Assembly: GCA_965220965.1 (NCBI GenBank)
Contig: OZ244852.1
Location: 2,368,001-2,432,000, forward strand
Reading direction: 5' to 3'
DNA length: 64,000 nucleotides
Source of the DNA: Candidatus Marinacidobacterium sp.
GTDB lineage: Bacteria > Acidobacteriota > Vicinamibacteria > Marinacidobacterales > Marinacidobacteraceae
The notes beneath the pieces are model-generated. The model did not search any database. It had not been told where the DNA came from and saw only the letters and a list, made by a program, of their open reading frames with translations. Shown here piece by piece: positions 43,549 to 64,000 of this stretch (within the stretch, counting starts at the first letter, position 1; each line of letters opens with the position of its first letter). Both the position numbers and the translations under genes were made by a program.

Positions 43549-43670
43549 CGGCTCAGCGGGCGTTCTCCGGCTGTGGACCGGATGCGTGCTCTCGCGCGCG
43601 CTCCCACCCGCGCCACCGAGGGTAGCACCGAGCTGGAGCCGCGCCTCGACCATACCGCGGCGGCCCGGTT

Positions 43671-46289
43671 TCAGGTTGGCGCGCCAGCGTCGCCCGGAAC
43701 CTCCACGACAGTCGCCATCTCGGCCTGGGTGTGGGTCACGATGCGGACACAGATCTGGCCGCTCGCGGGCGTCGGAAACGGCGTGCTCGTGAGCGAGAAC
43801 ATGGCTTCCTGCGCGTGGGGGTCAACGCGAGACTCCAGCCTCTTCAGCATCCGCCGGATCTGACGGTCCTGCTCTCCGCCGGGGAAGTGCATCCGGTGGG
43901 CGAAAAAGGACTGGCCGTCGTAGTCGGTGTCCAGCATCCAGCAACTGATGTCCTCGGGCTTACCTGCGCGCAGGTTGCCGGTGGTGGGGTCGAACACGTC
44001 GAAGCCCAGGACCTCGCAGGTCCAGTAGCCCGCCGGACGCGGAGCCGCCACGACCTGCACATCGGGCTCGCCGACGAGCACGAAGGCATGATCGTGCTGG
44101 CTGTCCTTCAGGTTGCCGATCGTCAGATCGCGGTTCGCCTGGGCGCGCAGCACCTGGAGGCGGCCCCGCTGTTCCAGGCCCGCGCCGGTTCCCGTCTCGA
44201 ACCCGAACGCGATTACGAGAAGGGTGGTGACGTCGCCGTCGCCGATCTGGACGGCTTCGTTCGCCGCGCGGGTCACGAGCGTCCCGGAGGCGGTGATGTC
44301 GTCTGGCAGGATCGCTACGGCGACACGGGCCCCCTGGCGCTCACCGCTCGAGGCCTGGGTGGCCAGATGGGTGACGAGTCGTCCGCCGGACCAGGCCTCG
44401 AGATCGCTCAGCCGTAGGCGTTGTCGCTGACCGGGGACGACCACGCCAGCGGAAACAAGGGCGTCCCTAACGGCGGTAACGGCGTCCGAGTCCAGGCGCT
44501 GGGCCGTGAGCCCATCGGACCCGGCGGGGAGGTATCGGTAGGGCGACTCGCTCTCCACCGTGAACGGGGAAGAGACGCGCAGGACGCCTCTCTTCCGGAG
44601 CGGTTGGTTGACGAGCAGCGTGGGGTCACGCGGCTTGTCGTAGGCCATACTGGCGGCGCTGACGCTCGGGACGCGTTCGTAGACGAATCCGAGCGCCGGA
44701 TCGTGGCGATACGACGGCGCCAAACCGGACGTGGATGGTTCGGACTTTGAGAGTGAGAGAGAGGGTTCCGCCTCTCGCAGCCTTTTCTCCTCGACCTCGC
44801 CCTCCGGAGAATCCCGCAGCAGGTAGTACGGATGGATGGCGGTCGCGAGCCGCTGCCGCGCCAGCGCGATCGGGACGCCGGCGGCGTCGCAGGTGATCCA
44901 GCGCCTCCCCCAGCGTTCGGCCACCAGCGCGGTCGTTCCGGACCCGCAGGTTATGTCCAGCACCAGGTCGCCGGGCGCCGTGGCCATGAGGATGCAACGC
45001 TCCAGAACGGACTCGGCTGTCTCGACCACATAGTGCAGGTCGTTCGGCGGCATCTGGATGTGCCAGAGGTTGGTGATCGGACGCCCTGGGATTTCATCGG
45101 CGTACCACTTCCAACTGAGGCGGTCACCGGTGGCAACCAGCCGGTTTCTGGTGGCGAGTCGTTCCAGTCCCAGATGACTGACGCTCCAGTGCCTGCCCGA
45201 ATCACACGGGAAGTCGCGACCCCGCCAACGAAACGCCTCGGAGCGACCCGTCGTGGATGGGTTCAGGGAAGTGAGTCGCTGCCGTCGAAATGTCCGTGAC
45301 CCTTGGGGTAATGCGCTTTCGGGGGACTCCCGCTCGTCGGATGTCAGCGCGCGCACCGTCCCATCGGCCAGCTCCACCATCGCGTACGAGCTCATGTGCT
45401 CGATCTTCTCTTTCAGATTCAGCGGCTCATAGAGCTGGAAGAACCTGAGCGCCGGCTTCTCCTTTGCGTACCAGAGCAGATAGTCCGCGACCTCCGGTAG
45501 CGTCTTCGACGAACTTCCACCGGTCTTGGCGAACGAGATCGTGGCGACGCGGTTCTCCGCTCCGAACACCTCGTCGAGCACGACGGCCAAGCGGTGAACG
45601 TTCGCCGCGCCGATCTGCAGGAACAGGCTCCCCGATTCGTGGAGCAGCGCATGAATCAGCCGCGTATTCCTCCAGATGTTGTCCAGATACGAATGGATCC
45701 CGTTCCTGTAGGTGTCCCGAAACGCCTGCACCATGCCGGGGTCACCGGGAATGTCTTTCGCGCCCTCCTTGACGCTCCGGCTCCGCGTTGACGGCTGGAA
45801 ATTGCTCTGGAAGGAGATCCCGTACGGGGGGTCGTAGAAGACCATCTGGACTCGCCCCGCGAGCCCCTCGCGCCGAGCGAGCGAGGCCATGACCCGACGG
45901 GAGTCCCCCCGGATGAGCCGGTTCTGCCAGTTGCCTCGGTGCTGGTACCACTCGTAGGCGGCGCTCGTCGGAAGGTTGTTGTAGGCGTCCCGGAAGAGGA
46001 ACTGGACCTCTCGCCGGTCGGCCGGCGTCCGCGTCAGCGAGTCGATGAAGCTCTTGGGATGGATCTTCTCGTGGATGTAGAGCGGATGGGCGTCGACGGT
46101 GAAGTCCTCGGCGTCCTCCCGGCCCCAAGACAGTCGAGGTCCTTCCGGGTTCCGGGACGGCGGGGAGTAGGGGATCGGCTGGCGGTCGTCCTCGGTCATG
46201 AAGGGCGCGGTCTCCTCGGTGGGAAGGTTGGTTCGCCGCGCGGATGGATGGTCGTACGAATCTGGGGGCTTTGCTCTCTTCCTGGCCAT
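43671..46289 (-). CDS. mod: Type III restriction-modification methylase (Mod)
   Basis: NRLIRGDS, YDPPYGI, LDEVFG, DITCGSGTT, WGRRWI, WMLDTDYDG; start abuts the res stop. Confidence 0.88.
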   Translation of the reverse strand: MARKRAKPPDSYDHPSARRTNLPTEETAPFMTEDDRQPIPYSPPSRNPEGPRLSWGREDAEDFTVDAHPLYIHEKIHPKSFIDSLTRTPADRREVQFLFRDAYNNLPTSAAYEWYQHRGNWQNRLIRGDSRRVMASLARREGLAGRVQMVFYDPPYGISFQSNFQPSTRSRSVKEGAKDIPGDPGMVQAFRDTYRNGIHSYLDNIWRNTRLIHALLHESGSLFLQIGAANVHRLAVVLDEVFGAENRVATISFAKTGGSSSKTLPEVADYLLWYAKEKPALRFFQLYEPLNLKEKIEHMSSYAMVELADGTVRALTSDERESPESALPQGSRTFRRQRLTSLNPSTTGRSEAFRWRGRDFPCDSGRHWSVSHLGLERLATRNRLVATGDRLSWKWYADEIPGRPITNLWHIQMPPNDLHYVVETAESVLERCILMATAPGDLVLDITCGSGTTALVAERWGRRWITCDAAGVPIALARQRLATAIHPYYLLRDSPEGEVEEKRLREAEPSLSLSKSEPSTSGLAPSYRHDPALGFVYERVPSVSAASMAYDKPRDPTLLVNQPLRKRGVLRVSSPFTVESESPYRYLPAGSDGLTAQRLDSDAVTAVRDALVSAGVVVPGQRQRLRLSDLEAWSGGRLVTHLATQASSGERQGARVAVAILPDDITASGTLVTRAANEAVQIGDGDVTTLLVIAFGFETGTGAGLEQRGRLQVLRAQANRDLTIGNLKDSQHDHAFVLVGEPDVQVVAAPRPAGYWTCEVLGFDVFDPTTGNLRAGKPEDISCWMLDTDYDGQSFFAHRMHFPGGEQDRQIRRMLKRLESRVDPHAQEAMFSLTSTPFPTPASGQICVRIVTHTQAEMATVVEVPGDAGAPT

Positions 46290-49288
46290 CAGTGCGTTCT
46301 CCCTCCGTGGATCGCCGCCTCGAGGTCGGTCGCGACGCTCGCCGGTCTCGTCAGCACGCAGTAGCGCCACTCTCCCTGGCACTCGGGGTCATCGGTGTTG
46401 CGCAGCGCCGGAATCCACGAGTCGCGAACGGCGCGTTCCTTGGCTTCGCTGTTGGGGCCGGGCAGGCCCTTGTATTCGATGACGAGATGAACCGGCCGCC
46501 CCTCCCGGTCCCGCTCCCTCAGTCTGGCCACGAAGTCGGGCAGGTAGCTCCGGGTGAGCCCGGTGCGCGCGTCCAGATACGGGATGGACCAGTGGAGGCG
46601 GTCGTTGCGCACCCAGCACTCCACGCCAGCGCTGGAGTCGAGCGCCTCCGCCACGCTGAGCTCCGGGTCGCTGTCGCAGGGCGCCCGGTTCAGTTCGGAC
46701 CGGCGGGCCTCGCGAACCCGTCGTTTGGCTGTCCAGTAATGGACCGACCCGGTGTCCAGCACGCGGTCCGCGGCCGGGTCCTCCTCGTCGGCGAAGATCG
46801 GCAGGATCCTCGGCGTCTCGTCGTCGCCAAGGGAACAGGCGCTGACGATTTCGCGCGCGACGCGGGGGGCCTGCTCGCGCCGCACGACCTCCCCGAAGCT
46901 CCCGCAGCGGACATCCGGGTGAGCGAGCCACTCCTGCGCAGCCTGAGCCGCATCCCCGAAGAGGGTTCTGCGCCGGACCGGCAGGTCGCTTCCGGCGGGG
47001 TGCAGGCCCCCTTCGATATCCCGGAGCACGTCGCGCGCGACCCGCCACTGGAAATGCCTCTCCCTGCGCCGATCCTCGAAGACTGAACCGCCACCCACCA
47101 CGCCTTCAGAATGCACGAATTCCGGTATGCCCCCCAGGGTGTCCCCCGGCGCGGTCGCATCCTCCGGGTCGCCCTCGCGAAGATCGAAGGGACGCACCCG
47201 ATCGGGTTCGAGCCGGAGCCTCCTGCCGGGCAATTCCCATCGGTACCCGGCCACTTGCGGGAACCGGATGCCGAACTCCTCCCGTCCAGTCACCGAACAC
47301 ACCTTGTAGGGCTCCCGAGGCGGCCGCGGCGCTTCGTCGCGCGCCCGCATGAACGAGAAGGGCACGCCGAAGAGGTGGGAGGTCTCGGGTCGCAACAAGC
47401 GCCGGTCCTCGTCCGCGAAGTCCTCGTACGACGTGCGCCGCAGAGAGCGGCCAGCGACCTGCTCGCATAGCAGCTCGCTCCCGAACTTGCGGAACCCCAG
47501 GATGTGGGTCACGGTGCGGGTGTCCCACCCCTCCGACAGCATGGAGACCGAGACCACGCATCGAATGCGCGCGCCCGGCCGCCCCTCCTTGCCGACCGTG
47601 TTCGCGATCTCCCGGATGCGGGCCAGACGCTCGCCCTTCGTCTTCGCGTCCGGCGCCAGCAGCTTCGCCTGCGCCTCCATCACTTGCGCCAGTGATCGAC
47701 GCATCTCGTCCGGCGCGTCCAGCTTCGAGTGGACGAGAATCGTCGGGGGCTGTTCCACCCAGCCCGATCCATCCGGGAGCACGTTCGAGAACAGCGCGCA
47801 CCTCCCCGGCTCGAAGGGCGTCGGGGGAGGTCCTTCGCCGACCGCCTCCGCCTGGTATCCGGCGATGTGCCGATAGAGCTCCGTCGCGTTCTGCACCGTA
47901 TTGGCGACCACGATGAACACCGGGATCCGGCCCGATGCCTGGTAGCGCTCATTCGTCCGCTCGTAGTGCTCGTAGAGCTTTCCGAGCGGCGCTTCCACCG
48001 TCTGCGGAAGATCCCCGGCGCGCAGTTTGCGCTCCGACGCCGGAGTGTTCTGGTAGAGGTTGCGGTAGACCGGGTTGCGGTCGCCGATGTCATCGTCCAC
48101 CGGGACCTGTGGAATCTTGGTGAGCCCCGCCTCCACCGCCTCGATGAGCGGATAGTCGCTGACGATCCAGGGAAACAGCGGACTCTCGGCGTCGGGCGGA
48201 AGCCGGAGGAACATCGGCGTCGCGGAAAAGTCGAGCACTTGCGCGAGCGTCCCGGCGTCGCGCAGCGCCTCCAGCGCCCGGAACCACAGCGCTGCGCTCT
48301 GTTCGTATTCCCTCTCCTCCCCGCTCGCCTGCCTGAGTGACGCCGACGGCCGATAGCAGTGATGCCCCTCGTCATTGAGCACCAGCAGTCGCCGGTGTCC
48401 CCGGTGCTTGCGCAGCAGCCGGTTGAGCATCGCCCTCGGACTCTCGGTCCAGGCCTCGTCCGGCCGCGTGTCCGGAGACCTTCCACGCCGCAGCATCTTC
48501 TTCGCAATCCCCGACGCGGCGTCTTTCTCCCCGTCCACGAAGAGGGTGCTGCGACGCTGGAAAGCCTGGAAGTTCAGCACCGACACCCGGGCCCGGAACC
48601 GTCCGCGCAGCGGCGGGGGCAGAAGATCCCGGTAGGCCCTGCGCCCCGCCTCGGTCTCCGGATCGAGCTCCTGGAGTCGCTCCCGGACCGTCAGGTTGGG
48701 CGCGATGAGCAACACATCCGCGTCACTCTCCTCCCGCAGCGCCCACCAGGCGATGACCATCGCCATCGTCTTCGTCTTGCCTGTCCCGGTCGCCATCTTG
48801 ATCGCCAGGCGGGGAATGGCGTCGTTCCGGGACGCATGGATGGTCGAAAGCCGTTTCCCGATTTCCTCGTAGGCGGCCCCGCCGAGACGCGGTCCCGCTT
48901 CCATGAGCCAGATGACCGTTTCCGCCGCCTCCAGTTGGCAGAAGAAGGGGCGTTCATCCAGTTGTTCGCTCGACCAGTGGTCCAGAAGCCGACGCGTCGC
49001 GCGCGACACGCCCGGCCATCCGCTCCGCCGCCAACGGGCAACCTCCTCGCGGACTCGGTTGACCAGCCGATGCGGTTCGAGCCTCGTCGAGGGAGGCCTC
49101 GACGACTGTTTCCTCGGGAGCGGCGCCGGGAGATAGGCGCCGCTCGGCCGCCGCCCCTCGACGATCTGGTCCGTAGCCCGGAAGCGCTGGTCGAGCTTCC
49201 AGTGGCGCGCCGGCTCCTCGTATGGACTGTTCAGGACCGGCGTCGCCGGTCCGTCCGTCGGGGATCCGGCTTCCGCTGGCAAGGACAA
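46289..49288 (-). CDS. res: Type III restriction enzyme Res subunit (SF2 ATPase plus PD-ExK nuclease)
   Basis: LNSPYEEP, FFCQLEA, MATGTGKT, NDEGHHCY, SATP, MLSEGWD, EQVAGRSLRR, YLPDF...IEYKG. Confidence 0.9.
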   Translation of the reverse strand: MSLPAEAGSPTDGPATPVLNSPYEEPARHWKLDQRFRATDQIVEGRRPSGAYLPAPLPRKQSSRPPSTRLEPHRLVNRVREEVARWRRSGWPGVSRATRRLLDHWSSEQLDERPFFCQLEAAETVIWLMEAGPRLGGAAYEEIGKRLSTIHASRNDAIPRLAIKMATGTGKTKTMAMVIAWWALREESDADVLLIAPNLTVRERLQELDPETEAGRRAYRDLLPPPLRGRFRARVSVLNFQAFQRRSTLFVDGEKDAASGIAKKMLRRGRSPDTRPDEAWTESPRAMLNRLLRKHRGHRRLLVLNDEGHHCYRPSASLRQASGEEREYEQSAALWFRALEALRDAGTLAQVLDFSATPMFLRLPPDAESPLFPWIVSDYPLIEAVEAGLTKIPQVPVDDDIGDRNPVYRNLYQNTPASERKLRAGDLPQTVEAPLGKLYEHYERTNERYQASGRIPVFIVVANTVQNATELYRHIAGYQAEAVGEGPPPTPFEPGRCALFSNVLPDGSGWVEQPPTILVHSKLDAPDEMRRSLAQVMEAQAKLLAPDAKTKGERLARIREIANTVGKEGRPGARIRCVVSVSMLSEGWDTRTVTHILGFRKFGSELLCEQVAGRSLRRTSYEDFADEDRRLLRPETSHLFGVPFSFMRARDEAPRPPREPYKVCSVTGREEFGIRFPQVAGYRWELPGRRLRLEPDRVRPFDLREGDPEDATAPGDTLGGIPEFVHSEGVVGGGSVFEDRRRERHFQWRVARDVLRDIEGGLHPAGSDLPVRRRTLFGDAAQAAQEWLAHPDVRCGSFGEVVRREQAPRVAREIVSACSLGDDETPRILPIFADEEDPAADRVLDTGSVHYWTAKRRVREARRSELNRAPCDSDPELSVAEALDSSAGVECWVRNDRLHWSIPYLDARTGLTRSYLPDFVARLRERDREGRPVHLVIEYKGLPGPNSEAKERAVRDSWIPALRNTDDPECQGEWRYCVLTRPASVATDLEAAIHGGRTH

Positions 49289-50025: not shown

Positions 50026-52110
50026 TCATTCGCGCAGATGCTCGCAGGCGGCGTCGAGGTCCTCGACCGGCCGGGAGCAGACGCCTCCGCGGCACGGCAG
50101 GAAGGTGACGGCGCCTTCCTCCCTCGCCAGCGCCGCCGCCGACTGCAGCGCGGGGAGGCGGCTCCCGGCGGTCTCCGCGTCCGCGAGGAGCACCAGGCCG
50201 CCGGGGATCCGCCACAGCCTCTGGAGCGCGGCGCGCGTCTCCTGGTGTGAGCGGTCCCCGACGACCACGATCTGCCGCGGCTCCGCGAGGTAGCGCATCC
50301 CGGCGCTGAGGAGCGTCGCAAAGCCCGCCGGGCTCTTGCGCGCCTGCGGCCAGAAGGCGGCGAGGATTCCGCGGGCCGCGCTGCGCCTTCGCGCGTCGCC
50401 GGTCAGGGCGTGGAGCCGCAGGAGGGCGTCCGCCGCGACCGCGTTGCCGGAGGGCAGCGCTCCGTCGTAGCCGGTCCGTGTCCGGACCGGGAGCTTCTCG
50501 TGGTCGTCCGCCGTTGTGTAGCAGCCGCCTCCCGGGGCGGCGAAGCGGGCGTCGAGCAGGTCCGCCACCTCGTCGGCCGCGAGCAGCCAGCGCTCGTCGA
50601 AGTCGCTCTCGTAGAGGTCGAGCAGGCCGGCGAGCCAGAACGCGTGGTCGTCGAGCATCGCCGGGACCTTGGCGCGCCCCCCTCCCCAGACCGCGAAGTA
50701 GCGCCCCTCCACCCGGAGCCGGTCCAGCACGAACCGGCCCGCCTCCTGCGCCAGAGCGAGGTAGCGCTCCTCGCCCAGGACGCGGGACGCCTGCGCGAAA
50801 GCGGAGATCGCGAGCCCGTTCCACGCCAGCAGCACCTTGTCGTCGAGGCCGGGCGCGATGCGCCGGGCGCGCGCCTCGAGCAGCCGGGCGCGCGACGCCG
50901 CAAGCGCGGCCGCCGTCTCCTCGGGTGTTCCGCCGAGCCGCCCGGCGAGTTCCTCGTCGGAAGCGACGCGCCGAAGGATCGTCTTCCCTTCCCAGTTCCC
51001 CTCCGGGCGCAGGTCGTAGGCGGCGGCGAATCGCGAGGTCTCCTCGCCCAGCAGGGCCTTCACCTCGTCGAGGCGCCAGACGTAGAACCGCCCTTCCTCT
51101 CCCTCGGAGTCGGCATCCAGCGCTGCGTGGAACCCGCCTTCCGGAGCGCGCATCTCGGCCATCCAGTCGAGCGCCCGCCGGGCGTCCTGGAAGTACGCCT
51201 CACTCCCTGTGACCTGACCCGCCAGCAGGTAGACCGGAACCAGCAGGGCGTTGTCGTAGAGCATCTTCTCGAAGTGGGGGACGAGCCACTCCCGGTCGGT
51301 CGAGTAGCGGTGGAATCCCCCGCCAAGCTGGTCCGCCAGTCCGCCGTCCGCCATGCTCCGGAGCGTGCGCCGGACGACCGGCAGCGCCTCGTCCGCGCGC
51401 CCGGCCGCTGCCCGCTGGAGAAGCAGGGTGAGCTGACGGCTCGGCGGGAACTTCGGGGCCGGCCCGAAACCGCCGAACTCCGGGTCATGCGAGGCGAGCA
51501 ATCCGGTCACGGCGCGGCCGATGGGCTCCTCGGTGATCAGCTCGCCGGAGGCTCCCAGGCGGCCTGGCAGCGCCGCCGCCTGACGCAGTCGCTCGAGCAG
51601 CCGCTCCCCGTTCTCCATCATCTGCGCGCGCTTCGCCGGATCCCGCCACGCCGTGGCGACCGCCTCGAGCACCCGGGGGAAACCGGGACGCCCCCAGCGG
51701 TCCTCCGGCGGGAAGTACGTTCCGCCGAAGAACGGCGTGCCGTCGGGGGCGAGGAAGGCGGTGAGCGGCCAGCCTCCCGCCCCGGTCGTCGCCTGGACGA
51801 ACGCCATGTAGATCTCGTCCACATCGGGGCGCTCCTCCCGGTCCACCTTGACCGGGACGAAGCTCTCGTTCATCCGGCGGGCGATCCCCTCGTGCTCGAA
51901 CGACTCGTGCGCCATCACATGACACCAGTGGCACGCCGAGTAACCGATCGAGAGGAGGACCGGCGCGCCGCGTCGCTCCGCTTCGGCGAAGGCCTCCGCT
52001 CCCCAGGGCCGCCAGTGCACCGGGTTGTTCCGGTGCTGGAGCAGATACGGGCTGGACTCGAGATGGAGGAGGTTCTGCGCGCCGCCGCCGGGCGCGCTGG
52101 CGGGAGTCAT
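50026..52110 (-). CDS. Thioredoxin-domain protein, YyaL/SPATA20 family
   Basis: [53 protein letters not shown]. Confidence 0.92.
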
Positions 52111-52174: not shown

Positions 52175-53251
52175 TCAGACCGCGGCCGGCGCCCGCGTCT
52201 CGGCGGTCTCCCGGGCGCCCATCCCGGCGGCGAGGCGCTCCCCGCCCCAGCGCACCAGCGCGGTCCCGACCGTCAATCCGGCGCCGACCGAGCTGAAGAG
52301 CAGGAGGTCCCCGGGCGTCACCGCCCCGCGGTCGATCGCGTCGCGAAGCGCGGTCGGGATCGAGGCGGCCGTGGTGTTCCCGTACTTGTGGACGGTCTTG
52401 ACGACCCGTTCCGGCGGGAGTCCCAGCCGCTTGGCGATCGCGTCGATGATCCGGGCGTTCGCCTGATGGCAGACGAGGAACGACACGTCCCCGCGGGTCA
52501 GGCCGGTCTCCGCGAGCAGCTCGTCGGCGGCGTCCGCCGAGCTTCGCACCGCGAACCGGAACACCTTCCGTCCCTCCTGCCGCACGAAGTGCTCGCGCCG
52601 GTCCACCGTGTCATGGGACGGCGGGTGGAGGCTCCCTCCGGCGGTCATGTAGAGCAGATCCCGCCCGGAGCCGTCCACCTTGTTGTTGAAGCCGAGGATG
52701 CCCTCGCCTTCCTGCGCCGGTTCGAGGAGGACGGCCCCGGCCGCGTCGCCGAACAGGATGCACGTCGTGCGGTCCTGGTAATCGGTGATCGAGGTCATCA
52801 CATCGGCCCCGATCACGAGCGCCTTGTCGGCGGCGCCGCTGGCCACGAACTGGGTCGCCGTCCCGAGCGCGAAGTTGAAGCCGCTGCAGGCCGCGGAGAG
52901 GTCGAAACCCCACGCCCGGCTGGCGCCGATGTCGTCCTGGACGAGGCACGCGGTCGCCGGAAAGTTCATGTCCGGCGTCACCGTGGCGACCACGATGACG
53001 TCGATCTCCTCGGCGCTGATCCCGCGGCGGCGAAGGGCGTCTTCCGCCGCTCGCGAGGCCAGAAAGGAACAACCGGTCCCTTCTTCGACCGCCCTTCGCT
53101 CCCGGATCCCGGTGCGGTCCACGATCCACTGGTCCGAGGTGTCCACGATCTCCTCGAAGTGGGCGTTCGTGAGCACCTTGTCGGGCAGATAGGCTCCGAC
53201 CGACGTGATCGCGACGGGGCGGACCGGAGAGCGGTCGGATGGCTGGATCAA
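52175..53251 (-). CDS. fabH: 3-oxoacyl-ACP synthase III
   Basis: [20 protein letters not shown] (Cys), [12 protein letters not shown] (His), GNTTAAS (Asn). Confidence 0.95.
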
Positions 53252-53350
53252 GGGGACAACTCCCGGCGCGGGCTAGGGGCTCGCGGCTGCAAACGGGGAA
53301 TCCTACGCGAACGGTCGGCCTGCGACGCTCCCCGGCGATAATCTGACCGG

Positions 53351-54106
53351 ATGGCCGTCCCGAGCCCGTCCCCGCCAGCGCCGGAACACGGCCCGGCGGC
53401 GCAGGCGGCGCCCCCCCGCGCAAGGGCGGCGGCGTTCTACGACCTCGACGGCACGCTCATCCGGACGAACCTGGTCCACGTGCTCGCCTGGTACGCGAGG
53501 AACGATCAGGGGCTGCTCCGCAGCCTGAAGTCGGTCGCCGCCACTGCGGTCGGAGTTCCGCTGTTCTTCACGACCGACCTGTACAGCCGGAAGGTGTTCA
53601 ACGACCTGTTCTTCCAGTGGTACCGGGGGCAGTCCTACGACCGGCTCCGCTTCCTCGCCGAAGAGCTCCACGAGAAAGTGATCCGCCCCGCGATCTTCCC
53701 CGGCGCCCCCGATCTGGTGGCCCAGGCGCGCCGCGCGGGACTTCGCCCCGTTGTCGTGACCGGGGCCCTCGAAGTCTCGGTTCGGCCGCTGCTCGAGGAG
53801 CTCGGGATCGACGAGTTCGTTGCGAACCGGCTTGAGTTCGTGGACGGCCGCGCCACTGGCCGGCTGTCGCCGCCGGTGCTCGCCGGGGCGAGCAAGGCGC
53901 TGTGGATGCGCGAGTACGCCGAACGCGAGGGTCTCTCGCTGAACGACTCCTACGCCTACGCCGACAGCATGTCGGACCTCCCGATGCTGAGCGTGGTCGG
54001 CCATCCGACCGCCGCCAACCCCGACCTGCGGCTCCGCAGCACCGCCCGCCGCCACGACTGGCCGGTGATCGACCTTCGCCGACGCTCCGCAGGCCCCCCG
54101 GCCTGA
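53351..54106 (+). CDS. HAD-IB (SerB-like) phosphatase, ElbB-like
   Basis: [28 protein letters not shown]. Confidence 0.88.
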
Positions 54107-54144
54107 CATCTCGTGGACAGGCTCCGCTATCCGAAAGGCCGCTG

Positions 54145-55743
<1,599 letters not shown>

Positions 55744-55747
55744 ACGC

Positions 55748-58700
55748 GTGACCGAAACGGCTCCCCGACCCCGGATCGACCTCGGCGAGGCGTTCGCCGG
55801 CAAGGGGATCCTGCTGCTCGGCGGGACCGGGTTCCTCGGGAAGGTGGTCGTCGGGATGCTGCTCGAGCACTTCCCCGACATCCGCCGGCTCTACCTCATG
55901 GTGCGGGCCCGCGACCTCGAGGGCAGCCGGACCCGCTTCCGGGAAATGGTCGAGGAGTCGGCGGCCTACGAGCCGCTGCGCCGCCGCCACGGGGACCGCC
56001 GGTGGGAGTTCCTCGACGAACGGGTCGAGGTGCTCGGCGGGGACATCACCGAAGAGGACTTCGGGTACTCCGAAGAGGAGGCGGCCCGGGTCGCGGGGGA
56101 CATCGACCTCGTCCTGAACTGCTCGGGACGCGTGGAGTTCAACCCACCGCTCGAGAACTCGATGGCGACCAACGTTCGCGGCACCCAGAACGTCATCGCT
56201 TTCGCCCGCCGGATGCGCCGCCCGGCGCTCGTCCACATCAGCACCTGCTTCGTCGCCGGGAACCGCGCCGGGGAGATCTACGAGGACGAGCCGCTCATCG
56301 GCTATTTCCCCCGCCGGGACCGCGAGGACCAGGAGTTCCGCGTCGACCGCGAGATCGAGGACTGCGAGCGCCTCGCCGCCCGGGTCCGCGACGAGTCGAA
56401 CGACAAGTCCCGCGCCGACGAGTTCCGCGAAGCGGCGCGCCGGCGGTTCCGGGAGGAGGGGCGGAACCCCGACGACGCCCGCGCGCTCCGCCTCGCGATC
56501 GCCGCCGAACGGCGGAACTGGGTCCGTCGCCGCCTCCGCGACCTGGGGATCGAGAAGGCCCGCGGCTGGGGCTGGCCCAACATCTACACCTACACCAAGA
56601 GCCTGGGGGATCAGCTCGTCGCCGAGGCCGACGGGCTTGCCCGCGCCATCGTCCGCCCTTCCGTCGTCGAGAGCTCGCTGGCGTTCCCGGTCACCGGCTG
56701 GAACGAGGGGTTCACCACGAGCGCGCCGCTGGTGCGGATGGCGCTCCGGGGCCAGAACCTCTTCCCGGTCAAGGAGGGCGTGGTCCTCGACGTCGTCCCG
56801 GTGGACCTGGTCGCCTCGGTGACCCTCGCCGTCGCCGCCGAGACGATGGTCACCGAGCCGCGCCTCGTCTACCAGGTCTGCAGCGGGGACAAGAACCCCT
56901 CCGAGGCCTCCCGGCTGGTGGACCTCGTCGGGATCTACAAGCGGCGCCACTTCCAGAACAAGCCGGGCGGACTGAAGCTGTGGAACGAGGTGCTGGGACG
57001 GATGGAGGCGACCAAGGTTCGCTCCGACCGCTTCGAGAAGCACACGCTCAAGTGGATGCGCCGCTCGGCGCAGGGGCTCCAGGACGCGCTCGACCGCGCC
57101 TCCGGCGAGCCGCTCGGGCCGCTGGTGACCGCCGTGGACCATCTGCGGACCCAGGTGCGGGGGTTCGACCACTTCGTCAGCCAGGGCGAGCGGCACTACC
57201 ACACCTTCCGGCCCTTCATCGCCGGGGAGCGCTTCATTTTCCGGGCCGATAACACCCGCGACCTGTTCTCCCGCCTCGACGGCAACGACGGCAGGCTCTA
57301 CTTCAACCCGGAGGAGATCGACTGGTACGACTACTGGCTCCACGTCCACCTTCCCGGGCTCGAGAAATGGGTCTTTCCCACGCTCGAACGCGAGGAGCGC
57401 GGCCGCCCCCGGCGGGTCTATCAGTACAAATCGATCGTTGAGCTGTTCGAGTCGAGCACCCGGAACCACGCCGGCCGGGTGGCCATGCGCATCACCCGGG
57501 GCGGACGGGAAGAGCGGATCACCTACGCCGATCTCCGGGAGTGCGTCCAGCGGGCCGCGGGGTTCCTCCGGGCGGCCGGCTTCGGGCCGGGGGATCACAT
57601 CGGCCTCCTCGCCGAGAACGCCCCCGAGTGGGGCATGGCCTACCTGGCGATTGCTCGGATCGGGGCGGTGGCGATCCCGCTGGACCGGGACACGCGGCCG
57701 GCCGACGTCCAGCGGCTGCTCGCCGCCGGCGACGCGAAGGCGCTCATCCTGAGCGACGCGCTCCATGACCGCCACGGGGCGATGGGCGCCGGGGAGTCAG
57801 GCCCGGGGTTCCGGGACATTCCGTTCGCCGAGCTCTTCGCCCTGGAGGACGAGGCCGAAGAAGAGCGCCGCATCGCCGACCTGCCGCCCCCTCCCACCGC
57901 CACGAGCCTGGCCTCGATCCTGTTCACCTCCGGGACGACCGGGTCTCCCAAGGGGGTGATGCTCACCCACCGCAACTTCACCAGCCTGGTGGCGAAGCTG
58001 CTCACGCTCTACGACATCGGGCCGAAGGACGGCGCGCTCAGCGTTCTGCCGCTCCACCATTCCTTCGAGTTCACGACCGGGTTCCTCCTCCCGCTCTCGC
58101 GCGGCGCCCAGATCGCCTACCTCGACGAGTTGAGCGGCGACACGATCACCCGTGAACTCCGAAAGGGCCAGACCACCTGCATCGTGGGCGTCCCGGCGCT
58201 GTGGGAGATGTTCCGCAAGAACCTCCTCAAGAAATTCGGGGACCGCTCGCCGCGGGCGGAGGACCTGGCGGTGGCGCTGGTGGACGCCGCCTATCTGCTT
58301 CGCGAGGACACCGGGCTGAACCTCGGACCGGCGCTCTTCCTGCCGATCCACGCGGCCCTCGGCGGGCGGATCCGGTATCTGATCAGCGGCGCCTCCGCGC
58401 TGTCCGAGACCGACTGGAAGTTCTTCCGCGGCCTCGGCTTCCACCTGGCGCAGGGCTACGGCCTCACCGAGGCGGCGCCGGTCCTGACCGTGACCCCGCC
58501 GGAGGGACGGATCCCCCTGGGGAGCGCCGGCAAACCGCTGCCCGGCATCGAGGTCCGGATCGCCGAGCCGGACGCCTCCGGCGTGGGTGAGGTCATTGCC
58601 CGCGGTCCCAACGTCATGCTGGGGTACTACGCCAACGAAGAGGCCACCAGCGAGGTCTTGCGCGACGGCTGGCTCCACACCGGCGACCTCGGCCGGCTCG

Positions 58701-60127
58701 ACGAGGAGGGGCATCTGTTCCTCTCCGGGCGCCGCAAGGACGTCATCGTGAACCGGGGCGGACGCAACATCTACCCCGACGAGCTCGAGGAGATCTACGC
58801 CGATGAGGCGCTGATCGAGGAGATGACCGTCGTCGGCCTTCCGGACGGCTCGGCGGAGACCCCGGCCGCCGTCGTCGTCGCGAAGGATGGGGCTCCCGGC
58901 GGGGAAGGCGCCGTCCGCGCCCGTTTCCGCGACGTCGGCGCCCGGCTGCCGCTCCACAAGCGGATCGGCATCGTGGAATTCCATGAGGGCCCGCTGCCGC
59001 GCACGACCACCCGCAAGGTGAAGCGGCGCGAAGTGCTGCGCTGGCTCGCCGCCCGCCGCCGTGACGCCGCTTCGGCGGAGAGCGAGGACACCGCCGCCCG
59101 CAGCCGGCTCTTCGAGCTCGTGGCGTCGGCGTGCGAGCGGCCGGCGTCGGGGCTGCGGAGCGGCTCCCGTTTCGCCGAACTGGGTTTCGACAGCCTGATG
59201 TTCAACGATCTGGCCGCCGCGGTCGGAACCGAGTTCGGGGTGATCGTCGCCCCCGAGGATCTGGCCCGGATGGAAACCCTTGGGGACCTCTCGGACGCCG
59301 TCGGGCCGGCGCGGGCGCGAACGAAGGCCGCTCGCCGCCCATCGGAACGGAAGGCCGAGACGTCCGAGATCGAGATCCCTCCGGCGCTCGCGCGCGCCGG
59401 CCGCGCCGGTCTCACCCAGGTCCAGCACTGGTTCTACCACCAGGTGCTCGAGCCGACCTTCAGCGGGCGCGCCTACGTCCCGTCCCACACCCACTACCTG
59501 GTCGTCGCGAACCACTCCTCCCACCTCGACATGGGGCTGGTCAAGATGGCGCTCGGGGACCAGGGCTCGAATCTCGTCGTTCTGGCCGCCGCCGATTACT
59601 TCTTCGACAACCGGGTGAAGCGGACCTTCTTCCACAACTTCACGAACCTGGTCCCGATGGAGCGGCGAGGTTCGCTCAAGCAGTCGCTCGAGATGGCCGC
59701 CGGGTATCTCGACCAGGGCCACAGCGTGCTGATCTTCCCGGAGGGAACCCGCTCGCGCAGCGGGGAGATCGCGCCCTTCCGGCGGGGGTTCGCGCACCTC
59801 GCCTACCGCTGCGGCGTCGGCGTGCTCCCGATGCATCTGAACACCTGGAACGCCTTTCCGCCGGGCGCGGTGGGCCTCAGATCGCGCCGGGTGACCGCGC
59901 GCATCGGCCCCTTCCTGTCGCACGAGTTCCTCGTCGGATTCGATGCCGGAGGCCCTCGCCGGGCTCGTGACCAGGCGGTGGCCGACCTGGTCCAGACGAT
60001 GGTGGAGCGGCTCTCCCGGGGAGAGCCGGTCCAGCTCGACGAGCTGGCGGAGCGCTTCCGTCCGTCTCCGGGGGAAGCCGACGCCGCGGCGCGGGAGTCC
60101 TCCGGGGCCGCGGCTCCGGTCGGCTGA
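55748..60127 (+). CDS. Multidomain fatty acyl reductase / AMP-ligase / ACP / acyltransferase, ElbD-like
   Basis: FAR GGTGFLGK and YTYTK; adenylation FTSGTTGSPKG, GYGLTE, TGDLG; ACP LGFDSL; PlsC NHSSHLD and FPEGTRS. Confidence 0.9.
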   Translation: MTETAPRPRIDLGEAFAGKGILLLGGTGFLGKVVVGMLLEHFPDIRRLYLMVRARDLEGSRTRFREMVEESAAYEPLRRRHGDRRWEFLDERVEVLGGDITEEDFGYSEEEAARVAGDIDLVLNCSGRVEFNPPLENSMATNVRGTQNVIAFARRMRRPALVHISTCFVAGNRAGEIYEDEPLIGYFPRRDREDQEFRVDREIEDCERLAARVRDESNDKSRADEFREAARRRFREEGRNPDDARALRLAIAAERRNWVRRRLRDLGIEKARGWGWPNIYTYTKSLGDQLVAEADGLARAIVRPSVVESSLAFPVTGWNEGFTTSAPLVRMALRGQNLFPVKEGVVLDVVPVDLVASVTLAVAAETMVTEPRLVYQVCSGDKNPSEASRLVDLVGIYKRRHFQNKPGGLKLWNEVLGRMEATKVRSDRFEKHTLKWMRRSAQGLQDALDRASGEPLGPLVTAVDHLRTQVRGFDHFVSQGERHYHTFRPFIAGERFIFRADNTRDLFSRLDGNDGRLYFNPEEIDWYDYWLHVHLPGLEKWVFPTLEREERGRPRRVYQYKSIVELFESSTRNHAGRVAMRITRGGREERITYADLRECVQRAAGFLRAAGFGPGDHIGLLAENAPEWGMAYLAIARIGAVAIPLDRDTRPADVQRLLAAGDAKALILSDALHDRHGAMGAGESGPGFRDIPFAELFALEDEAEEERRIADLPPPPTATSLASILFTSGTTGSPKGVMLTHRNFTSLVAKLLTLYDIGPKDGALSVLPLHHSFEFTTGFLLPLSRGAQIAYLDELSGDTITRELRKGQTTCIVGVPALWEMFRKNLLKKFGDRSPRAEDLAVALVDAAYLLREDTGLNLGPALFLPIHAALGGRIRYLISGASALSETDWKFFRGLGFHLAQGYGLTEAAPVLTVTPPEGRIPLGSAGKPLPGIEVRIAEPDASGVGEVIARGPNVMLGYYANEEATSEVLRDGWLHTGDLGRLDEEGHLFLSGRRKDVIVNRGGRNIYPDELEEIYADEALIEEMTVVGLPDGSAETPAAVVVAKDGAPGGEGAVRARFRDVGARLPLHKRIGIVEFHEGPLPRTTTRKVKRREVLRWLAARRRDAASAESEDTAARSRLFELVASACERPASGLRSGSRFAELGFDSLMFNDLAAAVGTEFGVIVAPEDLARMETLGDLSDAVGPARARTKAARRPSERKAETSEIEIPPALARAGRAGLTQVQHWFYHQVLEPTFSGRAYVPSHTHYLVVANHSSHLDMGLVKMALGDQGSNLVVLAAADYFFDNRVKRTFFHNFTNLVPMERRGSLKQSLEMAAGYLDQGHSVLIFPEGTRSRSGEIAPFRRGFAHLAYRCGVGVLPMHLNTWNAFPPGAVGLRSRRVTARIGPFLSHEFLVGFDAGGPRRARDQAVADLVQTMVERLSRGEPVQLDELAERFRPSPGEADAAARESSGAAAPVG

Positions 60128-60143
60128 GAAGGGGTCGGCCGCC

Positions 60144-61178
60144 ATGCCGGAAGAAGAGGGTCCGGGACCGTCCGGGCCGGACCCGACGCGCCCGGTCCTG
60201 GTCACCGGGGGAACCGGGTTCCTCGGGACCCACCTGCTCGATGTGCTGCTGGGAGGCGACCGCGATGGCGCCGCGCCCCTTCGTGTTCTGGCGCGCGAAC
60301 CCGCGCCGAGGCTCGCCGCGCGCGGCGTCGAAGTCGTGGAGGGGGACCTCCTCGAGGGGCCGGGGCTCGAGGTGGCGCTGGGCGGAGTCCGTGCGGTGTT
60401 CCACCTGGCTGGCATGGTGTCCCGCGATCCCGACGCCGCCGCCCGGCTCCAGCAGGTCCACGTGGACGGCGCCCGCCGTCTCGCCGGGCTGGCCCGCGCC
60501 GCCGGCGTCGAGCGGATCGTGCTGGTCTCGACCAGCGGGACGATCGCGGTGACCACGGGCCCCGAGCCGGAACTCGAGGAGTCGGCGCCGACCCCGATCG
60601 ACCAGATCGGGGGCTGGCCCTACTACCGCAGCAAGTGGCTCCAGGAGCGCGCCCTGCTCTCCGCGGCGGAGGACCTGGAGGTCGTCGTCGTGAACCCCTC
60701 GCTGCTTCTCGGTCCGGGAGACGAGCGGCTGTCCTCGACCGGGGATGTGCTCCGGTTCCTCGCCGGGGAGGTTCGCGTGATCCCGCCCGGAGGGCTGAAC
60801 TTCGTGGACGTCCGGGACGCCGCCGCGAGCGTGGCCTCGGCGATGACCCGGGGCCGGCCGGGACACCGCTACCTGCTCGGCGGCCACAACTGGAGCTTCG
60901 CCGACTTCTTCGCCCGCCTGGGCGAGGTCTCCGGCCTGACCGCCCCCCGCCTGCGGCTCCCGAAGGAGGTCTATACCGCCGCCGCGCTCGTCTCCGAGGA
61001 GGCGGCGCGACAGTTGGGTCGCGAACCCGCGGTGGACCGGATCAGCCGCGAGATGGCCGCGAGTTACTGGTATTTCAGTTCGGCGAAGGCGGAGCGGGAA
61101 CTCGGCCACACGGCGCGCGACGGTCGCCTCACCCTGCTGGAGACGGTTCGCTGGCTCGACGGTCGCGGGCTGGCCTGA
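60144..61178 (+). CDS. NAD-dependent epimerase/dehydratase, ElbE-like
   Basis: VTGGTGFLG, HLAG, YYRSK, VNPS, FVDVRD. Confidence 0.88.
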   Translation: MPEEEGPGPSGPDPTRPVLVTGGTGFLGTHLLDVLLGGDRDGAAPLRVLAREPAPRLAARGVEVVEGDLLEGPGLEVALGGVRAVFHLAGMVSRDPDAAARLQQVHVDGARRLAGLARAAGVERIVLVSTSGTIAVTTGPEPELEESAPTPIDQIGGWPYYRSKWLQERALLSAAEDLEVVVVNPSLLLGPGDERLSSTGDVLRFLAGEVRVIPPGGLNFVDVRDAAASVASAMTRGRPGHRYLLGGHNWSFADFFARLGEVSGLTAPRLRLPKEVYTAAALVSEEAARQLGREPAVDRISREMAASYWYFSSAKAERELGHTARDGRLTLLETVRWLDGRGLA

Positions 61179-61217
61179 CGCGGGAACCGCCCAGGCAAGG
61201 GGTCGCGCCCTCTCGTC

Positions 61218-62141
61218 TCACTCCCGGCGGATCCGGATCGCTCCCGGCGCCACCGAGACGGTGACGCCTCCCCGCGCGTGGGCCTGCTCCCCGTCGACCT
61301 CCAGGCTCATTCCCGCGGGCCCGACGGGGTCGAGCGGCTCGATCCGCATGCGCCGCACCGGACGGTGCTCGATCGCGCGGTGCCCGAAGTGGGTCCCCTG
61401 GACGAGGCGCGCCACCGCGTCCAGAACCGCCACCGGGCCGAGGGGGCCGATGAGCACCGCGTCGAGCAGGCCGTCGCCGGGATTCGCGGGGGGCGCGAGC
61501 GGGATGCCTCCCCCGATGCGCCGGGTGTTCAGCAGCGAGACGTTGAGCAGCAGTCGCGGACGGTCCGGCGCATCGTCGAGCGCGACCCGGTAGCGTCCGG
61601 CGCGGGAGGAGATCAGCTCCCGGGCGGCGGCCGCCGCGTAGGAGCCTCCGCCGAGGCGGCCGCTGCCGGCGCGGGCGCGTTCGTTCACGGCGGCGGCGAG
61701 CCCGACCGAACAACTGTTCAGGAAAGTGAGCGCGGGGCCGTCAGCGGATTCAACCCGCCCCAGGTCGGTGGGTTGCGCCCGGCTGCGGGCGAGGAACCGG
61801 ACCGCGTCGGCCAGCCGTCCCGGCGTTCCCACCGCCTGGGCGAAGTCGTTGCCCGTTCCCGACGGAAGAAGTCCGAGTTCGGCAACCGCCGCGGCGTTCT
61901 CCGCCGCCTGGGACAGCCCCCGCGCGGTCTCGGAGGCGGTGCCGTCGCCTCCGAACGCCACGATCAGTTCCCGTTCGCCGGCCTCGCGCCGGGCGATGTC
62001 CACGGCCTCCTTCGGCCCCCTCGTCCAGACGAGGTCATGGCCTCCGATTTGTTCCGCGACCGCTGGCGCGACCGCGCGCCACCGCGCCCGCGCCCGTCCC
62101 CGCCCGGCCGCCGGGTTCCCGATGACCAGAACCCGGCTCAC
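61218..62141 (-). CDS. Diacylglycerol/lipid kinase (YegS/DgkB family); start 62141 or 62234
   Basis: NPAAG, GGDGT, PSGTGNDFA, DGLLD, VDGE. Confidence 0.9.
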   Translation of the reverse strand: MSRVLVIGNPAAGRGRARARWRAVAPAVAEQIGGHDLVWTRGPKEAVDIARREAGERELIVAFGGDGTASETARGLSQAAENAAAVAELGLLPSGTGNDFAQAVGTPGRLADAVRFLARSRAQPTDLGRVESADGPALTFLNSCSVGLAAAVNERARAGSGRLGGGSYAAAAARELISSRAGRYRVALDDAPDRPRLLLNVSLLNTRRIGGGIPLAPPANPGDGLLDAVLIGPLGPVAVLDAVARLVQGTHFGHRAIEHRPVRRMRIEPLDPVGPAGMSLEVDGEQAHARGGVTVSVAPGAIRIRRE

Positions 62142-62350
62142 GTGGCGCAGCCCGCCTTCACGCCGGATCGCTGCGCCCGCGAGCGCCCGCGGGCGTATGC
62201 TTTCCTCTTGCGGGCCATCGCGAGGTTCCGGCATCGCGCCGGGGCGCGCCCGGACTCCCGAAGCGCCATGAACCCCCCTCCCGTCCAGCCCGACCCGGAA
62301 TTCCCGCCGGCTGGCGTCGCCGGCGCGCCCGGAGACCCGGAGGCGCGGGC

Positions 62351-63094
62351 TTGAAGGGACTCTTCGCCCGGATCGGGCGGCACACCTCGGCGGCGCTGGC
62401 GTGGATCCGGGACAGCATCGCGCACGGGATCATACGGGCGCGGATCCCGCCGAACGCGCTGACGCTCGCCGGGCCGGTGGCGATGGCTTTCGTCTTCTGG
62501 CCGGTGCTCGAGGGCAGGCTCCAGCTCGCCGGCTGGGTCGTCCTGCTCGCCGTCGCCTTCGATTCGCTGGACGGCGCGGTGGCGAGGACCTCGGGCCGGG
62601 TCTCCCGGTTCGGCGCCTACCTCGACTCGGTGGTGGACCGCTACGCGGACATGCTGCTGCTGTTTGCGCTGCTCGTCCATGTGCTCCAGGCGTTCTCCCC
62701 GGAGTCCCGGCCCCTCTGGTTCGGCCTGTGGTGCGCGACGGCGGTCGGGACTGTCGGGACGTCCTACGCCCGGGCCCGCGCCGAGGTGCTCATCCCGAAC
62801 TGCGCCGTCGGCTTCCTCGAGCGTCCGGAGCGCACGGTAACGATCATCATCGGCCTCTGGGCCGGCAACGTCCACATCGCGATCCTCATCATGGCCCTGT
62901 GGTCGAACCTGATCGCGGTGCAGCGGGTCGTCTTCACCCACCGCATCCTCCGCCACGGCGAGGCGTCCGCCGAGACGGCCTCCCGTTTCCTCTACTGGAG
63001 GTACGCCCGCGGCTCCGCCGAGCACACGATGCAGTCGGTGGCGTTCACCCTGCTCCTGATCTTCGGCCACCTGCTCCTCCCGACGCCCTACTGA
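62351..63094 (+). CDS. CDP-alcohol phosphatidyltransferase (PIPS/PgsA-like)
   Basis: PNALT, DSLDGAVAR...FGAYLDSVVDR signature, SYARARAE, ERPER. Confidence 0.9.
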   Translation: MKGLFARIGRHTSAALAWIRDSIAHGIIRARIPPNALTLAGPVAMAFVFWPVLEGRLQLAGWVVLLAVAFDSLDGAVARTSGRVSRFGAYLDSVVDRYADMLLLFALLVHVLQAFSPESRPLWFGLWCATAVGTVGTSYARARAEVLIPNCAVGFLERPERTVTIIIGLWAGNVHIAILIMALWSNLIAVQRVVFTHRILRHGEASAETASRFLYWRYARGSAEHTMQSVAFTLLLIFGHLLLPTPY

Positions 63095-63185
63095 GGCCGG
63101 TCGGTAGCGCGTGGTTTTCCAACGGCCAGGCCGAGCGCCGGATCCCTCCTCGATCGGTCAGATATAGACTCAATCCGGAGGCGTC

Positions 63186-64000
63186 ATGTCCGACGAAACC
63201 GGAGGGGGGCTGCACCTCCCTGACCTGAAGATCACCGACTTTCGGGGCATCCGCAGTCTCTCGATCCAGCGCCTGGGTCGGGTCTCGCTCATCGCGGGAC
63301 GTAATGGGGTCGGCAAGTCCACGGTCCTCGAGGCGGTTCGTGTGTATGCGGCGCGGGCGCGACCGGCGCTCCTGGAGGAGCTCCTTTATGGGCGAGACGA
63401 ATTCGCGTCTGCGCCTGAGGACGACGACGGCTGGCCGTGGGGGGACCCGGACTACGGCGCCCTCTTCCACGGCAGGTCCATCGACCGGGGACGTCCCATC
63501 AGCATCGGACCCGCCGTCGGCCACGACGACGTGCGGATTCGACTCCTGGCTCCCACTGACACTCACTTGCCTGACCGTGCGAAGCAATTGTTCAAGGAGG
63601 CGCCTCCGGAAGGCGGTATCCAGGTCATGCAAGTCCAGCATAAGGGAGAGCAGCGGTTCGTTCCTTCGTACGCCGCGCGTGCGTTCAGTTCCCAATGGAC
63701 AGGAGTTCGCTGGAACCACACGAGGCGCAGGCTGCCCGACTCCGAGGGATGGCCCGTCATGCGCTGCAATCCGCTGGGTCCCGACATGCCACGCAATGAA
63801 GATCTCGCGCGCTTCTGGGACCAGGTGGCCCTGACCGGGGAAGAGCAACTGGCCCTGCGCGCCATGAATCTTGGGGGCAGCGGCATTGAAGGCGTTGCCG
63901 TCGTGGGTGACGATCGTGGGCGTGGCGTGGGTCGCCGCGTCGTGGTTCGAGTGAATGGCCATGAGGGGCCTGTGCCGCTGAAGAGCCTCGGTGACGGGGT
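63186..64000 (+). CDS. ABC/AAA_15-AAA_21-type ATPase (partial, runs off the window)
   Basis: Manual translation, open to the window end: DFRGI, Walker A GRNGVGKST, ABC-signature-like SLGDG at the end. SD GGAGG; TAGACT upstream. Confidence 0.85.
   Translation, partial: MSDETGGGLHLPDLKITDFRGIRSLSIQRLGRVSLIAGRNGVGKSTVLEAVRVYAARARPALLEELLYGRDEFASAPEDDDGWPWGDPDYGALFHGRSIDRGRPISIGPAVGHDDVRIRLLAPTDTHLPDRAKQLFKEAPPEGGIQVMQVQHKGEQRFVPSYAARAFSSQWTGVRWNHTRRRLPDSEGWPVMRCNPLGPDMPRNEDLARFWDQVALTGEEQLALRAMNLGGSGIEGVAVVGDDRGRGVGRRVVVRVNGHEGPVPLKSLGDG

Follow-up and report, generated by a model that had tools for sequence, protein, structure and literature searches.

A probable elbBCDE-type ether-lipid operon in a Vicinamibacteria genome, set among conserved general lipid genes

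We analyzed a stretch of 64,000 nucleotides (the window) from Candidatus Marinacidobacterium sp. (assembly GCA_965220965.1, contig OZ244852.1, positions 2,368,001 to 2,432,000 of the forward strand), and within it a block of lipid genes at positions 52175-63094. Its core consists of four genes resembling elbB to elbE, the ether-lipid genes of Myxococcus xanthus. The genome is 3.25 Mb in size, comprises 2 contigs and is 94.4% complete. Genes were called by combining a listing of open reading frames (ORFs) with Pfam and NCBIfam searches at curated cut-offs. Because the G+C content is about 70% across the block, many spurious ORFs overlap real genes. Seven real genes were identified with the two family databases:

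52175-53251, minus strand: fabH (NF006829, 413.4 bits against a cut-off of 249; TIGR00747, 372 against 292)
53351-54106, plus strand: elbB-like HAD-IB phosphatase (TIGR01490, 121.8 against 98.3; Pfam HAD, 122 bits)
54145-55743 (ORF 53902-55743), plus strand: elbC-like protein of the LarA superfamily, 532 amino acids (NF052592 'LarAH14/15/16', 819.5 against 740)
55748-60127, plus strand: elbD-like enzyme, 1459 amino acids (NAD_binding_4/Sterile, AMP-binding, PP-binding, Acyltransferase)
60144-61178 (ORF 59943-61178), plus strand: elbE-like extended SDR, 344 amino acids (Pfam Epimerase, 82 bits; 3Beta_HSD)
61218-62234, minus strand: YegS/DgkB-type lipid kinase (Pfam DAGK_cat, 82.2 bits; YegS_C, 84.7)
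62351-63094, plus strand: PIP-synthase-like CDP-alcohol phosphotransferase (Pfam CDP-OH_P_transf, 61 bits)

The original prediction had placed these seven genes here, with fabH divergent from the operon, the kinase convergent on it and the transferase divergent from the kinase. All seven genes and their orientations were recovered by ORF listing, Pfam and NCBIfam, and only two start codons had to be corrected: from a reading of the frames, the LarA-like gene probably starts at the ATG at 54145 and the SDR gene at the ATG at 60144. The start of the HAD gene is uncertain, as its first 28 residues are not conserved among relatives. With the corrected starts, the gaps between the HAD, LarA-like, elbD-like and SDR genes are 38, 4 and 16 bp, which, together with their common strand, fits a single four-gene operon. 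The gaps at the flanks are 99 bp (fabH to HAD), 39 bp (elbE to kinase) and 116 bp (kinase to transferase). All catalytic motifs sought are intact in every gene. A scan for promoter-like sites (0 found, 0.4 expected by chance) and terminator-like sites (4 found, 3.4 expected) was uninformative.

The elbD-like enzyme contains, in this order, NAD_binding_4 (169 bits), AMP-binding (265.6), PP-binding (40.8) and Acyltransferase (86.6) domains, and carries the motifs GGTGFLG25, YTYTK280, SGTTGSPK728, GFDSL1146, HSSHLD1256 and FPEGTR1330. A wax-ester or triacylglycerol synthase was ruled out, as Pfam finds no WS/DGAT domain in the protein. In whole-genome searches, full-length collinear matches of 40-44% identity, spanning approximately residues 8-1430, were found in Minicystis rosea (CP016211.1) and in two Myxococcota metagenome-assembled genomes (MAGs), and the next-best matches in the same searches cover the ligase domain only. 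In Minicystis rosea, elbD lies ~173 kb from elbB/C. The elbB-like phosphatase has the motif DLDGTL at residue 31 and is 54-57% identical to its counterparts in seven Myxococcota loci among the matches listed. The elbE-like SDR has the motifs GGTGFLG22 and YYRSK160, and scores 223.7 bits with an HpnA-like profile, below the cut-off of 367.65. A second NAD-dependent epimerase gene, elbA, is not found upstream of elbB at this locus, where the divergent fabH stands. Since disruption of elbA had no effect in M. xanthus according to a review (PMC9131029), elbA is not essential to the elb family. In M. xanthus, elbD is needed for both alkyl and vinyl ether lipids (Lorenzen 2014, reviewed in PMC9131029). 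A search of the genome for PF10520 (CarF/PEDS1) gave no match, and the control was likewise silent.

Conservation was assessed with two sets of loci. The ElbD-anchored set has 26 loci, one genome per species, from close relatives with shared synteny (ElbD identity up to 84%). The ElbC-anchored set has 155 further loci from two ElbC-profile scans of 80 each, some of them on the same contigs as loci of the first set. Within the first, the order HAD, LarA-like, ElbD, SDR is found in 25 of 26 loci, and the 26th is truncated on the 5' side. Within the second, Blastocatellia/Pyrinomonadaceae-type loci carry the HAD gene in 46/46, elbD in 47/47 and the SDR gene in 31/32 evaluable cases, and Myxococcota-type loci in 62/78, 53/70 and 43/43, respectively. 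The partial linkage in the latter agrees with the review, in which elbD/E can be unlinked from elbB/C (PMC9131029). No Myxococcus record was present among the 80 + 80 loci of the ElbC-profile scans, and Minicystis rosea and the Myxococcota MAGs were used instead. Gene order, domain order and full-length ElbD homology to Myxococcota thus agree with the earlier assignment of the core to the elbB-elbE type, and we regard the predicted identity of the four genes as an elbB-elbE-type operon as supported. The original prediction mentioned elb-like clusters in subdivision 4 of the Acidobacteria; judged from its relatives by ElbD, the genome belongs to the Vicinamibacteria, which are subdivision 6, not 4.

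The product of such an operon need not be a membrane phospholipid. It may instead be a signalling or neutral lipid, for instance a fatty alcohol, a wax-like ester, an alkyl-diacylglycerol or a compound like lyso-platelet-activating factor, a possibility that has been raised for sponge symbionts. Alcohols can be released by the FAR-type domain, the presence of the HAD phosphatase suggests that the product is dephosphorylated, chemically diverse products are suggested by Loureiro et al. (10.64898/2026.06.23.733905), and M. xanthus makes the neutral ether lipid TG-1 (PMC9131029). We nonetheless consider this improbable: the missing WS/DGAT domain speaks against it, and the AGPAT-type domain, the neighbouring kinase and the head-group transferase fit glycerophospholipid synthesis.

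ElbC matches Pfam Lar_N with 124.1 bits (cut-off 23.3), and its best solved relatives are the single-histidine proteins LarA_Sp (9q2u, E 4.7e-37) and LarA_Bw (9q3j, E 1.4e-26). Residues D88, H130, K205 and H221 align with Asp73, His115, Lys195 and His211 of LarA_Sp, where His115 is catalytic, Lys195 links the cofactor and His211 is a nickel ligand (PMC12611868). All four are invariant in alignments of 5 acidobacterial and 8 Myxococcota ElbC sequences. The second catalytic position is occupied by V198, so that the second catalytic histidine (His174 in L. plantarum LarA) is missing, as it is in LarAH groups 14/15 (PMC12611868). Because this histidine is needed for racemisation, ElbC is probably not a racemase; LarAH14 was inactive on the hydroxy acids assayed (Desguin et al. 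2020). The same genome encodes LarB (271.5 bits against 175), LarC (388.6 against 22.1) and LarE (264.1 against 150) in scattered genes. The review lists elbC as a gene of unknown function (PMC9131029), and in the literature we found no paper tying elbC to LarA or lactate racemase. From these alignments, ElbC is probably a nickel-pincer-nucleotide enzyme with a single catalytic histidine.

Of the flanking genes, fabH encodes a protein with the active-site residues C122 and H262, and the asparagine was read by eye in 'GNTTAAS'. It is the sole KAS III gene in the genome, based on tblastn and on PF08541 (1 match among 14 candidates), and for this reason we take FabH to be the housekeeping starter enzyme. 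The single KAS III also rules out a dedicated fabH paralogue. fabH adjoins elb in 24 of the 26 ElbD-anchored loci. By group, it is found beside elb in 10/10 sponge-type and 4/5 Marinacidobacterales-type loci, and, in the ElbC-anchored set, in 1/40 Blastocatellia-type and 0/70 Myxococcota-type loci. The adjacency of fabH and elb is confined to Vicinamibacteria-type loci. Beyond fabH lies a gene for a DUF255/thioredoxin-domain protein of 694 amino acids (50026-52110, minus strand; Pfam Thioredox_DsbH, 236.7 bits), to which no pathway role is assigned and which also stands beside fabH in 24/26 ElbD-anchored loci. DUF255 proteins have a 2-epimerase-like C-terminal part.

The lipid kinase has the motif GGDG95 and is the sole real DAGK_cat gene in the genome. 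Outside the Vicinamibacteria, a DAGK-type kinase gene is again convergent on elbE, within 1.5 kb, in 9 of 25 evaluable Blastocatellia-type loci. Its partner there differs: the kinase is paired with a PlsC-type acyltransferase, not with a CDP-alcohol transferase, in 5 of the 6 loci examined. A link of the kinase to elb that goes beyond inherited gene order is therefore credible, as the association recurs in a second acidobacterial class.

Five CDP-alcohol transferases are encoded in the genome, and only that of the locus is PIPS/AIPS-like. The other four are a PgsA (125.9 against 109.1), a PgsA/Cls-like protein, a PssA (126.1 against 107) and one unassigned protein. The best solved relative of the locus enzyme is PgsA1 of M. 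tuberculosis (6h53, E 2e-17), and the Renibacterium PIP synthase is also among its best solved relatives. Its CDP-alcohol phosphotransferase (CDP-AP) signature, D70xxD73G..AR..G87xxxD91xxxD95, is complete, including G74, A77 and R78. The motifs SYARARAE and ERPER, on which the original prediction relied, both occur in it, aligned with SYIKARAE and ERPER of the M. tuberculosis PIP synthase, and S138, R141, P159 and R161 correspond to S132, K135, P153 and R155 of that enzyme. The phosphate of inositol phosphate is bound by R155 and R195 in the M. tuberculosis enzyme and by R153 and R191 in the Renibacterium one (Clarke et al. 2015, PMC4634129).

The sole MIPS gene of the genome (NAD_binding_5, 308 bits) lies 10.4 kb downstream of the transferase gene. 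Between them are AAA_21, DUF3226 and DUF5131 genes, two conserved ORFs without a family, and TPR, AbiEii and ferredoxin genes. MIPS is located 2.6-19.8 kb from the transferase ortholog in five relatives. The motifs and the nearby MIPS support the PIPS-like character of the enzyme proposed earlier, and it plausibly adds an inositol head group. A separate observation was made in an 8.1-Mb Marinacidobacterales relative, which has a second MIPS (C1:5867640-5869779) at 1.5 kb from a second, distant CDP-alcohol transferase, 33% identical to the one at the locus.

All enzyme classes needed for ether phospholipid synthesis stand side by side, and the original prediction proposed that these eleven kb encode a route that is self-contained and dedicated to ether lipids, with FabH priming special chains and with a kinase and a transferase specific to ether lipids. 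The best NCBIfam match of the transferase, an archaeal synthase using an ether-lipid donor (126.3 bits, against 105.8 for the bacterial PIPS family), can be cited in its favor, but both scores are below their cut-offs and the difference is small. The genome has no paralogues that could serve ester lipids (1 KAS III, 1 DAGK_cat, 1 PIPS-like gene), and the flanks are not co-conserved outside the Vicinamibacteria. With fabH, the kinase gene and the PIPS-like gene each present as a sole copy, the claim of a dedicated route is not upheld, and we rate it as very unlikely. Being the only enzymes of their kind, FabH, the kinase and the PIPS-like enzyme would serve all glycerolipids, with no dedicated ether-lipid branch.

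The sole copies also speak for another explanation, that the ether-lipid unit is limited to elbBCDE, and that the DUF255 gene, fabH and the genes for the kinase and the transferase are housekeeping genes with no relation to it, their order being inherited in one clade and devoid of functional meaning. The kinase and the transferase are on other transcription units, and fabH is virtually confined to one group (0/70 Myxococcota-type and 1/40 Blastocatellia-type loci, as above). The kinase and transferase genes are both located downstream of elbD, no more than 10 kb away, in 10 of the 26 loci, with an eleventh locus cut inside the kinase gene. In two relatives a sugar-uptake cassette, consisting of a mannosylglycerate-hydrolase-like glycoside hydrolase and a sugar ABC transporter, directly follows elbE in the same direction. 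In these and two more relatives, in all of which the pair is apparently lacking, elbD and the transferase ortholog beyond it are 14.2-15.5 kb apart. The distance is 7.6 kb in a fifth, the 8.1-Mb Marinacidobacterales genome mentioned above. The same distances can be read the other way: the ortholog is 7.6-15.5 kb from elbD in 5/5 relatives searched genome-wide, from which we conclude that the pair is a constant but loosely attached neighbour within the clade. The convergent DAGK gene in 9/25 Blastocatellia-type loci, with a different partner gene, also argues against synteny without function. We consider a purely inherited arrangement somewhat unlikely.

Our preferred reading, which we hold to be reasonably probable from the gene content and its conservation, is that the locus is an elbBCDE-type ether-lipid operon of Vicinamibacteria (subdivision 6), of the sponge- and coral-associated kind, amid conserved general lipid genes that would serve all glycerolipids. 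All steps of the corresponding pathway are derived from homology, with experimental support for elbD of M. xanthus only. Fatty acids would come from type II fatty acid synthesis primed by the sole FabH. The ligase domain of ElbD would activate a fatty acid and load it onto the ACP domain of the same protein (Ser1149), the N-terminal FAR-type domain would reduce the thioester to an aldehyde or alcohol, and the C-terminal AGPAT-type domain would acylate a glycerol-phosphate or dihydroxyacetone phosphate (DHAP) acceptor. ElbC, a LarA-family protein with one catalytic histidine, and the keto-reductase-type ElbE may perform the redox chemistry by which the sn-1 linkage becomes an alkyl ether, after which the ElbB phosphatase would release alkyl(acyl)glycerol. 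The lipid kinase could re-phosphorylate neutral glycerolipids to a phosphatidate analogue, and, following CDP activation, the PIPS-like transferase could attach inositol phosphate supplied through the nearby MIPS.

Several observations weigh against this reading. The transferase scores below the NCBIfam equivalog cut-offs for both AIPS (126.3 against 180) and PIPS (105.8 against 170), and its R198, which aligns with R191 of the Renibacterium enzyme, lies in a low-confidence stretch of the alignment. The kinase reaches 94.4 bits with TIGR00147, below the cut-off of 118.65, and a convergent DAGK neighbour is found in 0/35 Myxococcota-type loci. A second LarA homologue is encoded elsewhere in the genome (contig 1730773-1731243; 29% identical over 168 residues), so larB, larC and larE need not serve ElbC. 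The Myxococcota likeness was measured on Minicystis rosea and MAGs, not on MXAN_1527-1530 of M. xanthus, close relatives share synteny and are not independent observations, and the claims of single copies are limited by a genome completeness of 94.4%. Within the retrieved flanking stretches, the kinase/transferase pair was not found beside elb in 15 of 26 relatives.

A more speculative extension concerns the chemistry. Without the racemase histidine, ElbC would help to form the ether bond in the aerobic elb pathway by temporarily taking a hydride from a glycerolipid intermediate, for instance through transient oxidation of sn-2 to a DHAP-type ketone, with the sn-1 acyl group then replaced or reduced. 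It would in this way stand in for AGPS, and the products would pass via the kinase and the PIPS-like synthase to ether-linked phosphatidylinositol. We put this forward tentatively, as an idea that is unlikely to be right.

The DNA around the locus has further features. Directly after the PIPS-like gene, at 63186-64000 and on past the end of the window, lie the genes for an AAA_21/AAA_15 ATPase, DUF3226 and DUF5131. Together with the AbiEii gene further on, they resemble a small defence or toxin-antitoxin island, which is mostly absent from the same place in most relatives. An ORF at 63045-63962 on the minus strand was rejected as probably spurious, having no family match and overlapping the AAA_21 gene on the opposite strand. 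Just past the end of the window (contig 2434201-2437028), two ORFs are adjacent on the minus strand, encode 441 and 500 amino acids and match neither Pfam nor NCBIfam. They are 91-96% and 84-89% identical, respectively, in relatives whose ElbD is only ~70% identical, and in a protein atlas the 441-residue product falls near DUF1501/sulfatase-like clusters with a twin-arginine translocation signal. On the other side, at 42634-49288 (minus strand), two N6_N4 DNA methylase genes and a ResIII helicase-type gene of 999 amino acids form a type III-like restriction-modification block.

The locus adds no new system, and it sharpens points on ElbC, the kinase and the inositol head group. It bears on the AGPS-independent formation of the alkyl ether bond in aerobic bacteria. 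Three points are testable: ElbC keeps what appears to be a nickel-pincer cofactor site in a genome with larB, larC and larE; a DAG-kinase-type gene turns up repeatedly beside elb, in two acidobacterial classes; and in the sponge-type clade the nearest head-group enzyme resembles an inositol-phosphate transferase and is near the only MIPS. If ether-linked inositol lipids do exist in these uncultured symbionts, sponge lipidomes would be a place to look for them. The residual interest is thus in ElbC as a candidate nickel-pincer enzyme and in these possible lipids.

Among known systems, elbD-centred cluster families have been described in sponge Acidobacteriota and Poribacteria (Loureiro et al., mSystems 2022, PMC9426513), and elb-like clusters in Acidobacteriota subdivision 6 and Poribacteria (Loureiro et al. 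2026, bioRxiv 10.64898/2026.06.23.733905). According to the latter source, some families retain four of the five elb core genes, and the neighbours include DAG kinases, glycerol-3-phosphate acyltransferases, CDP-alcohol phosphatidyltransferases, 3-oxoacyl-ACP synthases and N-acylglucosamine 2-epimerase. Because DAG kinases, CDP-alcohol transferases and 3-oxoacyl-ACP synthases are listed there beside elb, the extended arrangement, which the original prediction had thought undescribed, is already reported with the same adjacent gene classes. The sponge elb families of both studies match our locus in bacterial group, in the four of five core genes and in the adjacent classes. The passages of Loureiro et al. 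that bear on these clusters do not name the transferase as PIPS-like, link it to MIPS or remark on sole copies, and elbC has 0 occurrences in them.

The M. xanthus elbA-elbE cluster (Lorenzen et al. 2014; PMC9131029) has the same order of HAD gene, elbC, elbD and epimerase-type elbE, and its ElbD has the same FAR-ligase-ACP-AGPAT architecture. The locus of the Acidobacteriota differs from it in having a divergent fabH in place of the upstream elbA, and in belonging to another phylum. ElbC resembles LarAH 14/15/17, LarA_Sp and LarA_Bw (PMC12611868) in keeping the cofactor lysine, the nickel histidine and the first catalytic histidine, with the second absent. The solved LarA_Sp and LarA_Bw have an asparagine at the second catalytic position and a carbohydrate gene context, whereas ElbC has a valine and is encoded in a lipid operon. 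With the bacterial PIP synthases (PgsA1, 6h53; Renibacterium salmoninarum, 5d91/5d92) the transferase shares the CDP-AP signature, SYxxARAE, ERPER and the first phosphate-binding arginine (R161), whereas R198 is only a candidate for the second, its alignment being of low confidence. It differs from them in its low similarity (E 2e-17), its scores below the equivalog cut-offs and a C-terminal extension of ~45 residues. With the eukaryotic peroxisomal pathway (FAR1, GNPAT, AGPS and acyl/alkyl-DHAP reductase), the locus shares three kinds of enzyme, namely a FAR-type reductase, a glycerolipid acyltransferase and a keto-reductase-type SDR; it differs in having no AGPS flavoenzyme and in holding, at an unexplained position, a putative nickel-pincer protein of the LarA family.

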